A stretch of 64,000 bases of DNA. Origin: Eledone cirrhosa (lineage: Eukaryota). The position numbers and the translations under genes are program-made. This document shows positions 6,581 through 62,730 of the stretch, in pieces. The notes under the pieces were generated by a model that made no database searches, had not been told where the DNA came from, and was given only the letters and a program-made list of their open reading frames with translations. The stretch's first letter is position 1, and the number at the start of each line of letters is the position of its first letter. Where the stretch lies: NCBI GenBank assembly GCA_964016885.1, contig OZ024752.1:9486001-9550000 (forward strand), read 5' to 3'.

Positions 6581-8932
6581 CATTCTATCCAACGTTCTAA
6601 CAACTCTGCCATTCTATCCGACGTTCTAACAACTCTGCCATTCTATCCAACGTTCTAACAACTCTGCCATTCTATCCAACGTTCTAACAACTCTGCCATT
6701 CTATCCAACGTTCTAACAACTCTGCCATTCTATCCAACGTTCTAACGACTCTGCCATTCTATCCAACGTTCTAACAACTCTGCCATTCTATCCGACGTTC
6801 TAACAACTCTGCCATTCTATCCAACGTTCTAACAACTCTGCCATTCTATCCAATGTTCTAACAACTCTGCCATTCTATCTGACGTTCTAACAACTCTGCC
6901 ATTCTATCCGACGTTCTAACAACTCTGCCATTCTATCCAACGTTCTAACGACTCTGCCATTCTATCCAACGTTCTAACGACTCTGCCATTCTATCCAATG
7001 TTCTAACAACTCTGCCATTCTATCTGAAGTTCTAACGACTCTGCCATTCTATCCAACGTTCTAACGACTCTGTCATTCTATCTGACGTTCTAACAACTCT
7101 GCCATTCTATCCAACGTTCTAACAACTCTGCCATTCTATCCAACGTTCTAACAACTCTGCCATTCTATCCGACGTTCTAACAACTCTGCCATTCTATCCG
7201 ACGTTCTAACAACTCTGCCATTCTATCCAACGTTCTAACAACTCTGCCATTCTATCTGACGTTCTAACAACTCTGCCATTCTATCTGACGTTCTAACAAC
7301 TCTGCCATTCTATCTGACGTTCTAACAACTCTGCCATTCTATCCAACGTTCTAACAACTCTGCCATTCTATCCAACGTTCTAACAACTCTGCCATTCTAT
7401 CCAACGTTCTAACAACTCTGCCATTCTATCCGACGTTCTAACAACTCTGCCATTCTATCCAACGTTCTAACAACTCTGCCATTCTATCCAACGTTCTAAC
7501 AACTCTGCCATTCTATCCAACGTTCTAACGACTCTGCCATTCTATCCAACGTTCTAACAACTCTGCCATTCTATCCAACGTTCTAACAACTCTGCCATTC
7601 TATCCAACGTTCTAACAACTCTGCCATTCTATCCAACGTTCTAACGACTCTGCCATTCTATCCAACGTTCTAACAACTCTGCCATTCTATCCAACGTTCT
7701 AACAACTCTGCCATTCTATCCAACGTTCTAACGACTCTGCCATTCTATCTGACGTTCTAACAACTCTGCCATTCTATCTGACGTTCTAACAACTCTGCCA
7801 TTCTATCCAACGTTCTAACAACTCTGCCATTCTATCCGACGTTCTAACAACTCTGCCATTCTATCCAACGTTCTAACAACTCTGCCATTCTATCCAACGT
7901 TCTAACAACTCTGCCATTCTATCCGACGTTCTAACAACTCTGCCATTCTATCCGACGTTCTAACAACTCTGCCATTCTATCCAACGTTCTAACAACTCTG
8001 CCGTTCTATCCAACGTTCTAACAACTCTGCCATTCTATCCGACGTTCTAACAACTCTGCCATTCTATCCAACGTTCTAACAACTCTGCCATTCAATCCAA
8101 CGTTCTAACAACTCTGCCATTCTATCCAACGTTCTAACAACTCTGCCATTCTATCCAACGTTCTAACAACTCTGCCATTCTATCCAACGTTCTAACGACT
8201 CTGCCATTCTATCCAACGTTCTAACAACTCTGCCATTCTATCCAACGTTCTAACAACTCTGCCATTCTATCCAACTTTCTAACGACTCTGCCATTCTATC
8301 TGACGTTCTAACAACTCTGCCATTCTATCCAACGTTCTAACAACTCTGCCATTCTATCCAACGTTCTAACAACTCTGCCATTCTATCCGACGTTCTAACA
8401 ACTCTGCCATTCTATCCAACGTTCTAACAACTCTGCCATTCTATCCAACGTTCTAACAACTCTGCCATTCTATCCGACGTTCTAACAACTCTGCCATTCT
8501 ATCCGACGTTCTAACAACTCTGCCATTCTATCCAACGTTCTAACAACTCTGCCATTCTATCCAACGTTCTAACAACTCTGCCATTCTATCCAACGTTCTA
8601 ACGACTCTGCCATTCTATCCAACGTTCTAACAACTCTGCCATTCTATCCAACGTTCTAACGACTCTGCCATTCTATCCGACGTTCTAACAACTCTGCCAT
8701 TCTATCCAACGTTCTAACAACTCTGCCATTCTATCCAACGTTCTAACAACTCTGCCATTCTATCCAACGTTCTAACAACTCTGCCATTCTATCCAACGTT
8801 CTAACAACTCTGCCATTCTATCCAACGTTCTAACGACTCTGCCATTCTATCCAACGTTCTAACAACTCTGCCATTCTATCCAACGTTCTAACAACTCTGC
8901 CATTCTATCCAACATCCTAACAACTCTGCCAT
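6581..8932. repeat. 29-bp minisatellite cattctatccaacgttctaacaactctgc
   Basis: Period 29 (6581, 6610, ...), about 81 units, no unique spacers. Confidence 0.97.
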
Positions 8933-38954: not shown

Positions 38955-39930
38955 TGGAAGGGAGAAAGATATATAGAGGAAGAAACGACCCAAGTACTGG
39001 ACTGGTACTTTTTTTTATCGATATTGAATGGATGAAAGGCAAAGTTGACCTCGGCGGGATTTGACCTGCGAGAGCCCAGAGCCGAAATAAATACTACAAA
39101 TCATTCTATCTGATGTTTTAACGACTCTACCATTCTATCTGATGTTTTAACGACTCTACCATTCTATCTAACTGATGTTTTAACGACTCTACCATTCTAA
39201 CTGATGTTTTAACGACTCTACCATTCTATCTGATGTTTTAACGACTCTACCATTCTATCTGATGTTTTAACGACTCTACCATTCTAACTGATGTTTTAAC
39301 GACTCTACCATTCTAACTGATGTTTTAACGACTCTACCATTCTATCTGATGTTTTAACGACTCTACCATTCTAACTGATGTTTTAACGACTCTACCATTC
39401 TATCTGATGTTTTAACGACTCTACCATTCTAACTGATGTTTTAACGACTCTACCATTCTATCTGATGTTTTAACGACTCTACCATTCTATCTGATGTTTT
39501 AACGACTCTACCATTCTATCTGATGTTTTAACGACTCTACCATTCTAACTGATGTTTTAACGACTCTACCATTCTATCTAACTGATGTTTTAACGACTCT
39601 ACCATTCTATCTGATGTTTTAACGACTCTACCATTCTATCTGATGTTTTAACGACTCTACCATTCTATCTGATGTTTTAACGACTCTACCATTCTATCTG
39701 ATGTTTTAACGACTCTACCATTCTAACTGATGTTTTAACGACTCTACCATTCTATCTGATGTTTTAACGACTCTACCATTCTAACTGATGTTTTAACGAC
39801 TCTACCATTCTATCTGATGTTTTAACGACTCTACCATTCTATCTGATGTTTTAACGACTCTACCATTCTATCTGATGTTTTAACGACTCTACCATTCTAA
39901 CTGATGTTTTAACGACTCTACCATCAATTT
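38690..39930 (-). mobile_element. SINE A long form with 29-bp head expansion (array 39102-39924)
   Basis: Tail and core collinear with 5838-6580; unit cattctatctgatgttttaacgactctac, about 28 copies. Confidence 0.9.
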
Positions 39931-45065: not shown

Positions 45066-45577
45066 ACTAGAGATGACTGAGGAAGGAAGTGGTGATGACG
45101 TCACGCACTTGAGATGATTGAGGAAGGGTGATGACGTCACGCACTAGAGATGACTGTAAGATTATATATATGCAATCTCTCTATCCATCTATATACATAT
45201 ATATATATATACATGTATACCCAGGGAGTGTAAAGCGAAGTTACTGTAGGTTCACCCAGGTGACCACTCGATGTCTAGGTTCACGTCAGTGGCGGGGTGT
45301 AGAGCTAGACAGAGTGTAATATAATTGTTTCTACTTTTGGCACAAGGCCAGCAATTATCCCAGTGATTTACTGGTACTTTATTTTATCGATCCCATAAGG
45401 ATGAAAGGCAAAGTTAACCTCGCCGGGATTTGAACTCAGACAATAAGGGCCTTAACTCTTTGCTTGCAAAGCATGGCGTCTGACCCTCTACCGATACTGC
45501 CAATCCACGGCTCATTCAGAGTGTAATATAATAATACAAGGACGATTTGTTAAGCCTTCATTACGTTTATTGATTGG

Positions 45578-45679
<102 letters not shown>

Positions 45680-45722
45680 GATATTAAATAAATGGAAACT
45701 ATATTTATAAAACCATATTTAT

Positions 45723-45774
45723 TCTATTATATATATTTCAAGGGTACCAAACCTTTGGTACGCTCTCATCAGAT
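45723..45774 (-). ncRNA. Type I hammerhead (left arm of palindrome, 5' stem I truncated)
   Basis: CTGATGA-gagcgtacca...tggtaccctt-GAAA-tatata-TA. Confidence 0.65.
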
Positions 45775-45857
45775 TTGTTTTATAAATATTGACATAACCA
45801 GGAAGAAGATCTTAACGGTTCAAGTTTTTCCTGGATATTTATAAAACAAAGTTTGTT

Positions 45858-45914
45858 TTTTATCTGATGAGAGCATACCTAAGTTTTGGTACCCTTGAAA
45901 TATATATAATAGAA
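45858..45914 (+). ncRNA. Type I hammerhead (right arm of palindrome)
   Basis: ttttat-CTGATGA-gagcatacc...ggtaccctt-GAAA-tatata-TA-atagaa. Confidence 0.75.
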
Positions 45915-46047
45915 TAAATATGGTTTTATAAATATAGTTTCCATTTATTTAATATCATTGAATATTATATTCCAGAAAACATGTCGAGTGCTTCGAATCA
46001 GTTATAAACATTTTGTATTTGTTGAATTACCAACAAATTAAATATCC

Positions 46048-46108
<61 letters not shown>

Positions 46109-46115
46109 CATACAA

Positions 46116-46166
<51 letters not shown>

Positions 46167-46168
46167 TT

Positions 46169-46226
<58 letters not shown>

Positions 46227-46234
46227 TTTATATA

Positions 46235-46315
<81 letters not shown>

Positions 46316-46608
46316 GGAAAAAATGAAATTTCATTTCTCACTCTTAGCACGGCGGATACTTAAATAATAGTATGTATACGTACATACATATATGTATACA
46401 GACGTACAGTAGTATGTATACGTACATATACATACATATATGTATACAGACGTACAGTAGTATGTATATACATACATACATGCACACATATATATATGTA
46501 CATATGGGTTTACCGAACATTTATTATAATGTTCGGTTTGTTTGTAAACAAACAGCCCGAATTAAGCCGTACAGTGTTCTGCAACCATCGTTGCCCTTTT
46601 GTTCAGCA

Positions 46609-46677
46609 CTGACAAAGGAACGATGAACTAGTTTCTAGCTTCTTAGCTGTCATCAGCACCGTATACCTTCCTGTCAG
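46609..46677 (-). ncRNA. Extended type I hammerhead
   Basis: ctgacaggaa-ggtata-cggtg-CTGATGA-cagctaagaagcta-GAAA-ctag-TT-catcg-ttcctttgtcag. Confidence 0.8.
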
Positions 46678-46859
46678 TCGATTGAACGTTTGAAAGTATA
46701 TACTTTCCTTATGCATATTAACGGTTGAGCAGCCGCCTAATTTGCATATCGAGTGAGTTAGTCGGCCGGGTGTACCGAAAACGATAAATGGAAAAAATGA
46801 AATTTCATTTCTCACTCTTAGTACGGCTGATACTTAAATATAAGTATGTATACGTACGA

Positions 46860-46928
46860 CTGACAGGAAGGTATACGGTGCTGATGACAGCTAATAAGCT
46901 AGAAACTAGTTCATCGTTCCTTTGTCAG
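46860..46928 (+). ncRNA. Extended type I hammerhead
   Basis: Same motif, loop 2 aata; core at 46881-46911. Confidence 0.8.
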
Positions 46929-47035
46929 TGTTGAACAAAAGGGCAACGATTGTTGCCGAACACTGTACGGCTTAATTCGGGCTGTTTGTTTACAAACGAA
47001 CCGAACATTATAATAAATGTTTGGTAAACCCATAC

Positions 47036-47085
<50 letters not shown>

Positions 47086-47221
47086 ATGTATGTATATACA
47101 TACTACTGTACATCTGTATACATATATGTATGTACGTACACATACTTATATATATATATATATAAATATATACATATATATATATATATAATTAGAAAGT
47201 GAACAACACAAAATATAACTA

Positions 47222-47287
47222 CTCCATTACCAAAGGTTTCTGGATCCCAGACATAATATATACGCCTGGATCGTTCGTCAGACAGAG
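47222..47287 (-). ncRNA. Type I hammerhead ribozyme
   Basis: ctctgt-CTGACGA-gatccaggcgta/tatgtctgggatc-GAAA-cctttgg-TA-atggag; a 95-bp island between (TA)n tracts. Confidence 0.7.
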
Positions 47288-47290
47288 ATG

Positions 47291-47339
<49 letters not shown>

Positions 47340-56917: not shown

Positions 56918-57031
56918 TATATATATATATACATACACACATACATATATATATATACATACATACACACACACACATACATATACACACACACACACAT
57001 ATATATATATACACACACACACACTATATAT

Positions 57032-57479
57032 ATAAGTATGTGCACGTACATACATATATGTATACAGACGTATTCGGTGCAACCGGCCGATTAACCCACT
57101 CGATATGAAAATTGGGCTACTCAGCCGTTAATATGCATAAGGTAAGTATATACGTTCAACAATCTGGCAGGAAGGTATACGTTGCTGACGATAGCTAATA
57201 AGCTTGAAACTAGTACAGCGTTCCTTTGTCAGTGTTGAACAAACGAGCAACGATGGTTGCTAGACACTACGGCTTAATACGGGATGTTTGTTTACAAACA
57301 CACCGAGCATTATAATAAATGTTCGGTGAATCCATACGTACATATATACATGTGTGCATGTATGTATATATATACATACTACTGTACGTCTGTATACATA
57401 TATGTATGTACGTGTACATACTTATAATTAAGTAACAGCCGTACTAAGAGTGGGAAATGAAATTTCGTTTCATTTTTCC

Positions 57480-57483
<4 letters not shown>
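57032..57483 (+). mobile_element. Second retrozyme-like copy: one monomer (57073-57483) preceded by a short inverted piece
   Basis: Collinear with the reverse complement of 46311-46780; 57032-57072 is the reverse complement of about 57384-57426. Confidence 0.75.
57154..57240 (+). ncRNA. Extended type I hammerhead
   Basis: cgttg-CTGACGA-tagctaataagctt-GAAA-ctag-TA-cagcg; outer stems ctggca/tgtcag and gttcaac/gttgaac. Confidence 0.8.
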
Positions 57484-57561
<78 letters not shown>

Positions 57562-62669: not shown

Positions 62670-62730
62670 TTTCATTATATATATTTCAAGGATACCAAGT
62701 TAAATCATGGTATGCCTTCATCAGACAAAA
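62670..62730 (-). ncRNA. Type I hammerhead ribozyme
   Basis: ttttgt-CTGATGA-aggcatacca/tggtatcctt-GAAA-tatata-TA-atgaaa; same family as 45858. Confidence 0.8.

Follow-up and report, generated by a model that had tools for sequence, protein, structure and literature searches.

Non-LTR retrozymes and Penelope-like elements

The closest described systems are the metazoan non-LTR retrozymes, in which a unit of a few hundred bases without an open reading frame (ORF) carries one type I hammerhead ribozyme, occurs in tandem copies and has a highly paired predicted fold (Cervera and de la Pena 2020, PMC7229834). Their units measure 220-245 nt in coral, 350-390 nt in mussel and 330/350 nt in axolotl (PMC7229834). 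Penelope-like elements (PLEs) have been named as likely candidates for moving animal retrozymes (PMC7229834, PMC7761336), and pLTR-derived retrozymes have been reported to co-occur with Neptune-type PLEs, with a proposed use of the PLE enzyme (Li, Clavereau, Pollet 2026, bioRxiv 10.64898/2026.07.22.740005). The Neptune-type PLEs are characterized by partial tandems, an inverted 5'-truncated copy, a tail at one end, two internal starts and a bias towards (TA)n (Craig et al. 2021, PMC8557442; Frangieh et al. 2024, PMC11167929), of which the tail, the inverted copy and the (TA)n bias are described as PLE traits (PMC8557442). In vitro, purified PLE protein cleaves and extends both strands (PMC11167929), and PLE cDNA begins at two internal sites, which define the tail (PMC11167929). 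Cutting by PLE hammerheads in vivo has been called a mystery (PMC7761336), and the sequencing described by Frangieh et al. includes no reads at the PLE hammerhead cleavage site (PMC11167929).

Here we describe a family in Eledone cirrhosa that shares the listed features of the metazoan retrozymes and of the Neptune-type PLEs. It was recognized in a 64,000-nucleotide window (GCA_964016885.1, contig OZ024752.1, positions 9,486,001 to 9,550,000), in which the plain coordinates below are counted. By the features that DNA can test, the family at 46310-47150 is a metazoan non-LTR retrozyme, self-cleavage being predicted and the circle proposed. We regard it with good confidence as a high-copy retrozyme without an ORF, for which the RT/GIY-YIG protein of a Neptune-type PLE likely acts in trans as the copying enzyme and which works like a non-autonomous Neptune-type PLE. 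The literature on cephalopod retrozymes and hammerheads and on Penelope chimeras, searched with Repbase, Dfam and subscription journals outside the scope, describes neither this family nor chimeras of the kind reported here, although the supplement of PMC7229834 may list cephalopod repeats; ribozymes are absent from the main text of a repeat annotation of Octopus vulgaris published in 2026 (PMC13282606).

The retrozyme locus

The original prediction, made from the letters of the window, described at this locus a short unit with no credible ORF and one hammerhead, a head-to-tail junction, an inverted partial copy and (TA)n on both flanks. All of these were recovered, with the following layout.

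46310..46783, minus: full unit of subfamily A, 474 nt, ending at the 'long' 3' end beside (TA)n
46784..46857, minus: leading partial unit, 74 nt, comprising the short-end hairpin and tail; junction between 46784 and 46783
46857..~47150, plus: inverted 5'-truncated arm, from unit position ~104 to the 'short' 3' end, without tail, beside (TA)n
46601..46687, minus: type I hammerhead whose stem I is extended; core at 46621-46661, with cleavage predicted to follow GUU, between 46626 and 46625
46857..46936, plus: hammerhead of the inverted arm, the second copy, with its core at 46876-46916 and the cleavage site predicted to lie between 46911 and 46912
46310..46361, minus: ~50-nt 'tail' between the short and long 3' ends
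46751..46757, minus: CUCACUC strand of a long-range helix; partner GAGUGAG in the tail, 46337-46343 or 46811-46817
46565..46572, minus: strand of a second long-range helix; partner at the start of the tail, 46347-46354
46051..46312, no strand: left (TA)n flank, likely target
47150..47190, no strand: right (TA)n flank, likely target
57030..57485, plus: further insertion of the family, subfamily B (U.U, GUA)

The leading repeat is 94.6% identical to 46310-46383 and stands head-to-tail with the full unit, which contains a 48-nt internal duplication at 46376-46481; the minus arm, read from 46857 to 46310, thus comprises 548 nt (74 + 474 nt), or 1.16 units. Each arm has one hammerhead core, and that of the direct arm is its only complete hammerhead. 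The two arms stop at different sites 50 nt apart, the short 3' end falling inside the loop of the hairpin 46356-46373. The further insertion consists of an arm at 57069-57485 with the long end and, ahead of it, an inverted arm of ~40 nt that has the short end.

The window also contains, at 45671-45965, a different element flanked by (TA)n, present as an inverted pair and carrying a hammerhead of minimal type (cores at 45736-45772 minus and 45864-45900 plus); copies near 62684-62724 and 14963 are related to it. Long minisatellites occur at 6581-8932 (29 bases), 26259-28147 (32), 34522-36348 (56) and 39102-39924 (29), and the two 29-mers look related.

A high-copy family without a coding region

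Exact-pattern searches of the 3.0 Gb genome found the core 12,506 times, the cleavage-site region 27,398 times, a motif preceding the short end 30,100 times and the tail 16,453 times; the reversed patterns, searched as controls, had 0 matches. The window variant (C.A mismatch, GUU triplet) is a minor subfamily with 892 exact cores; most of the listed cores have U.U and GUA, and the GUC pattern has 48 matches. Complete monomers (n=55) have a median length of 430 nt (416-483 nt from the 10th to the 90th percentile) and a unit GC content of 36%, and were sorted into five subfamilies, 4-19% apart, whose median divergence from their own majority ranges from 0.6% (subfamily C) to 5.5%. Some subfamilies slightly exceed 450 nt, the short-unit range for non-LTR retrozymes being ~150-450 bp, and the Eledone unit is slightly above the 170-400 nt reported for retrozyme RNAs (PMC7229834).

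The longest ATG ORF in doubled monomers has a median of 67 aa and a maximum of 137. An extension of longer copies 5' into an RT/GIY-YIG ORF, which the original prediction had named as the sign of a mere PLE terminal repeat, was not seen in any copy examined: such an ORF was found neither in the head-to-tail arrays nor joined 5' of the arms. Other head-to-tail copies, whose absence would likewise have spoken against the prediction, are abundant, with 102 of 144 mapped arms crossing the junction and arrays reaching at least 12 units. The unit is covered by contigs from two runs whose kind is unrecorded, which are uninformative on expression. At loci L364-L368 (G000:C1 51.78 Mb), retrozyme copies recur every ~1.29 kb, apparently inside a larger tandem repeat.

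An snRNA-type promoter, for which newt satellite 2 provides a precedent, was considered for ATGCAAAT at 46740-46747 and rejected; the motif is one arm of a hairpin. Compared with two U2 promoter types of the same genome, the unit showed no resemblance above shuffles; the scanned type has no octamer. The genome contains tandem U2 snRNA arrays with a ~2.2-kb period (L341-L355), and their scanned upstream region is without an octamer.

Hammerhead and RNA fold

The hammerhead of each arm has CUGAUGA and GAAA cores, a four-pair stem II beneath a C.A mismatch, a stem III reduced to a single A-U pair and capped by the palindrome CUAG, and a stem I that extends beyond a GGUAUA bulge; the mismatch, GUU triplet, bulge and long stem I were all seen as first described. 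Axolotl HHR_Amex1 has a similar one-pair stem III with a palindromic tetraloop, and axolotl HHR_Amex2 a similar U.U at the stem II base (PMC7229834). The Rfam check suggested with the prediction did not detect this variant, with no hammerhead at gathering score in the window and none at E<=10 over 45500-47300; Rfam miRNA matches in the window were rejected as microsatellite hairpins.

The core and stems II and III are invariant in 28/28 aligned monomers and stem I covaries, while the bulge and loop 2 are present and conserved. Circular minimum free energies gave z scores of -7.5 to -12.2 (6 monomers, 12 shuffles each), values partly inflated by a microsatellite-like, (AU)n-like arm. Across the 28 monomers, the 94 named pairs are 95.8% paired, and 13 of them change on both sides, where shuffles gave 6.9 (0/500) and slid controls 1-6; this covariation is support rather than a probability, because the structure was drawn from these same, related sequences. 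Two long-range helices join the tail to the rest of the unit, both with compensatory changes: in the CUCACUC/GAGUGAG helix a U-A pair becomes C-G in 9/28 monomers, and in the second (46565-46572) two pairs change both sides between subfamilies.

The predicted probability of stem II formation is 0.97-1.0 in four subfamilies, 0.18 in subfamily A and 0.19 in the window copy, and subfamily A (C.A, GUU) is thus predicted to misfold. The earlier suspicion that the mismatch and the GUU triplet make these copies weakly active therefore stands as a prediction for the subfamily; it does not stand as decay of two copies, the traits being those of a subfamily of 892 cores. A weak palindromic stem III blocks monomer cleavage and permits dimer cleavage (PMC4209133), and the predicted hammerheads would cleave chiefly as dimers. 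Together, an ORF-less unit of ~430 nt, one type I hammerhead, tandem copies and a self-paired predicted fold support the assignment to the retrozymes.

Other hammerheads were met in the same genome. Neptune-type or (TA)n-ending families at L081, L087, L093 and L105 have cores with U for C3 and A for G8 and a palindromic stem III. A further hammerhead family, also short and flanked by (TA)n, has U.U at the stem II base and a long stem I (L086, L090, L099 and L058, e.g. L090:7633-7680); it is often inverted and is possibly a second retrozyme.

Two 3' ends and the Penelope-like footprint

Ends were mapped in 144 arms chosen by the core pattern, all from contig 1, with one more dropped at a locus edge. 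Their 3' ends fall at the long site in 57 arms, at the short site ~50 nt upstream in 62 and elsewhere in 25, and are followed by (TA)n in 46/57, 47/62 and 7/25, respectively, that is, in 93/119 long or short ends. The 5' ends are scattered, with 6 near the junction and 1 near the cleavage site. A second sample, of 76 arms selected by a 3' anchor, agrees, with a single 5' end at the cleavage site. A hand count of 5' breaks (100 listed of 174) placed 17 at the site itself and 19, 25 and 21 at the three positions preceding it, the others being 3 ambiguous cases and 15 mutants. Thus, 5' ends do not accumulate at the junction or at the cleavage site in the 144 arms, the 76 arms or the 100 listed breaks, and a cut linear RNA is not a visible template. 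Inverted partners accompany 76/144 arms, and 30/144 span at least two cleavage sites, some of these spans being overestimated where the extension of an arm ran through an inversion. By contrast with the described metazoan retrozymes, the copies are mostly dispersed arms of 0.75-1.8 units, about half of them with an inverted partner, lying in (TA)n and ending at two defined 3' sites (PMC7229834).

In unique head-to-head insertions with both ends classed, a long end is paired with a short end in 34/34, and both insertions in the window follow this rule; a looser classing gave 45 mixed readings and one short/short. The proposal that reverse transcription started from a fixed point is therefore retained as to fixity and corrected as to number, there being two start points ~50 nt apart. 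Flank duplications were read in one direct (L305) and one inverted (L301) case, most ends lying in (TA)n, where duplications are unreadable. The inverted insertion at L301:1200-5200 has, in its outer flank, a 27-base stretch that duplicates its opposite end in inverted orientation, which hints at a fold-back repair step.

The genome contains 10,596 GIY-YIG candidates, of which 40 loci were read. A C-x4-C-x2-C linker, described for Neptune and Nematis (PMC8557442), is present in 7/8 aligned PLE ORFs, and one PLE ORF is an open frame of 938 aa with RT and GIY-YIG. The resident PLEs accordingly appear to be Neptune-type, a label given by the linker. They end in (TA)n, and two autonomous insertions (L086 and L095, inverted) each pair a tailed with an untailed end, with their own tails. 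The long/short pattern of the retrozyme corresponds to the Penelope 'tail', so that a Penelope-type RT likely mobilizes it. The retrozyme tail is 50 nt as against 30-40 in PLEs (PMC8557442, PMC11167929), and its pairing of one long with one short end is strict, whereas for PLEs the two strands were not seen to differ in start site in vitro (PMC11167929). The retrozyme carries the PLE footprint in full, without an ORF, and the tail, the 34/34 pairing and the (TA)n that follows 93/119 ends support the Penelope-like mobilization originally put forward.

Circular or linear template

The original prediction had the reverse transcriptase running about 1.15 times round a circular or multimeric RNA. 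The distance agrees, at 1.16 units, and 'circular or multimeric' stands only as that disjunction: seamless cleavage sites are expected alike from a circle, an uncleaved multimer and template jumps, so that DNA cannot separate them. The strongest alternative keeps the same element and PLE helper and makes the circle unnecessary, the template being linear, either uncleaved read-through of tandem copies or cleaved monomers joined by RT jumps. We give it close to an even chance. It accords with in vitro work in which the PLE uses unprocessed RNA and hammerhead cleavage is dispensable (PMC11167929), with partial tandems in PLEs without canonical hammerheads (PMC8557442), and with the two-unit periodicity of the array at L101; an RT jump also explains the cleavage-site chimeras described below as well as RNA ligation does.

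On the other side are runs of 4 to 8 near-identical units with private variants in both arms, which are most simply made by repeated passes over a monomer. At L305, which like L309 belongs to the young subfamily, the units are identical; at L510, of subfamily B, they differ by 0-3 bases, and three rare variants are common to the direct run and the inverted arm. Comparable repeats of coral, mussel and axolotl accumulate as circles (PMC7229834). The two-unit period at L101 and the divergence of an array of at least 12 units at L511, satellite-like with 4-32 base differences, point to later local amplification. Arms of the same insertion are closer than random arms in 16/16 cases (2.8% vs 9.2%, the random set mixing subfamilies). 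In comparisons within and between insertions, from which 27 pairs were dropped, adjacent units of subfamily A resemble each other no more closely than random copies do (6.9% vs 7.6%, 13/22), and those of subfamily B differ by 3.9% vs 10.0% (57/58), a result inflated because B lumps subfamilies. A circle and an uncleaved multimer are about equally good candidates for the template.

Chimeras at the cleavage site

Among 42 matches that break at the cleavage site (39 with DNA), 10 continue into foreign sequence. At L135, the retrozyme core runs up to GUU and is followed, with zero overlap, by the exact 3' cleavage product of the hammerhead of a Neptune-type family (seen at L087, L093 and L099), so that the joint falls on both predicted scissile bonds. 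A genome search for this joint gave two matches, L135 and L392. The second has other flanks, a different 5' end and an inverted arm with the long end of the donor family, so that the hybrid was retrotransposed in its turn; the two have a donor variant in common and may have one source. A third chimera, L398, begins at the cleavage site of another hammerhead family, to which no ORF could be linked, with a 3-base overlap. The sample is small, at 3 loci and probably 2 events. As a control, 33 matches that break right after GAAAC, where the overlap with other cores is longest, were examined (30 with DNA), of which 8 are foreign and 0/8 in register with another hammerhead. Reciprocal chimeras were not found, two candidates among the 100 listed of 118 being point mutants; none of the 42 cleavage-site breaks joins the young N1 family; and among the 100 listed of 277, 3' breaks are not evidently more frequent at the cleavage site overall.

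The chimeras suggest that the hammerhead cuts in vivo. In the simplest reading both RNAs were cleaved, followed by ligation or an end-to-end RT jump, and either would place the retrozyme RNA together with a Neptune-type RT. It is unlikely that the hammerhead is instead a dead relic, with the chimeras arising as chance microhomology deletions or as switches between neighbours in (TA)n clusters. Such an origin would suit the overlap at L398, the 7/10 foreign junctions that start at no recognized hammerhead site, and the PLE-retrozyme joints that also occur away from cleavage sites (L029, L058, L180), just as a relic would suit a stem II base without the canonical G-C pair and a GUC pattern with so few matches. 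It sits poorly with the invariant core and stems II and III beside a covarying stem I, with the L135/L392 joint, which has no overlap and lies on both predicted scissile bonds, and with the control, in which no foreign junction was in register.

None of the three joints away from cleavage sites was kept as a co-insertion with a PLE: a deletion best accounts for L029, L058 was discarded as short/short, and L180 fits the long/short rule and was discarded for a 4-base overlap. The inverted locus L180:1290-2200 has the retrozyme short end on one side and, on the other, a retrozyme-to-PLE hybrid arm with the PLE long end, which is a template switch or a deletion.

Relationship to PLE termini

It is quite improbable that the unit is a pseudo-LTR, or a deletion derivative, of an unsampled autonomous PLE. 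There is precedent in Xenopus, where 24/57 retrozyme families have Repbase matches, nearly all of them PLE termini (bioRxiv 10.64898/2026.07.22.740005), and in Eledone, PLE protein fragments occur in 45/300 family loci and the hammerhead of one local Neptune-type family has both U.U and a palindromic stem III. However, these fragments come with 3' UTRs, hammerheads and (TA)n ends of their own and lie in either orientation, which fits a shared target; the unit forms head-to-tail arrays without an ORF; the unit profile matches PLE loci only where whole copies have inserted; and the same closed structure is kept by five subfamilies up to 19% apart. No sequence homology was found between the retrozyme and the PLE termini of the 40 GIY-YIG loci read out of the 10,596 candidates, and the partner is therefore not named by sequence. 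The retrozyme differs from the Neptune-type PLEs in lacking an ORF, in having an extended rather than a minimal hammerhead and in sharing no sequence with the PLE ends sampled (PMC8557442, PMC11167929).

Amplification that bypasses RNA, as a satellite or as a fold-back repeat at the DNA level, to which the inverted arms and some long arrays (L511) might point, is very improbable given the fixed 3' and variable 5' ends, the strict long/short pairing and the RNA-type G-U covariation, the asymmetry of the ends largely excluding amplification at the DNA level.

A proposed mechanism and its implications

In the mechanism that we favor, of a retrozyme copied in trans, tandem retrozyme copies would be transcribed and the PLE protein would nick (TA)n. 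cDNA would then begin internally on the structured RNA, at two sites, one for each DNA strand, so that one arm has the tail and the other lacks it. Synthesis would pass intact cleavage sites, whether uncut or rejoined, and continue over 0.6 to several units. The link drawn by Li et al. for vertebrates is one of co-occurrence and pLTR homology; here, by contrast, it consists of the insertion footprint and the chimeras, with no pLTR homology in the 40 loci (bioRxiv 10.64898/2026.07.22.740005). A bolder proposal, which we hold tentatively and with somewhat more doubt than belief, is that a retrozyme without sequence kinship to its helper is used by a Neptune-type RT that recognizes RNA structure and primes at two internal sites, strictly one per strand, and that DNA fossils show retrozyme and minimal PLE hammerheads cleaving in the germ line, their products being cross-joined at the scissile bond into new mobile chimeras.

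The retrozyme class is already known; it is the strict end pairing and the cleavage-site chimeras that make the open questions testable. As the start sites are mapped, one subfamily is very young, at 0.6% divergence, and the genome has an open Neptune-type frame of 938 aa, both trans-mobilization and the choice between circle and line can be tested in the published in vitro system. If upheld genome-wide, the chimeras would be DNA evidence for germ-line ribozyme cleavage, and the family bears on which enzyme moves animal retrozymes and on whether PLE hammerheads cut in vivo.
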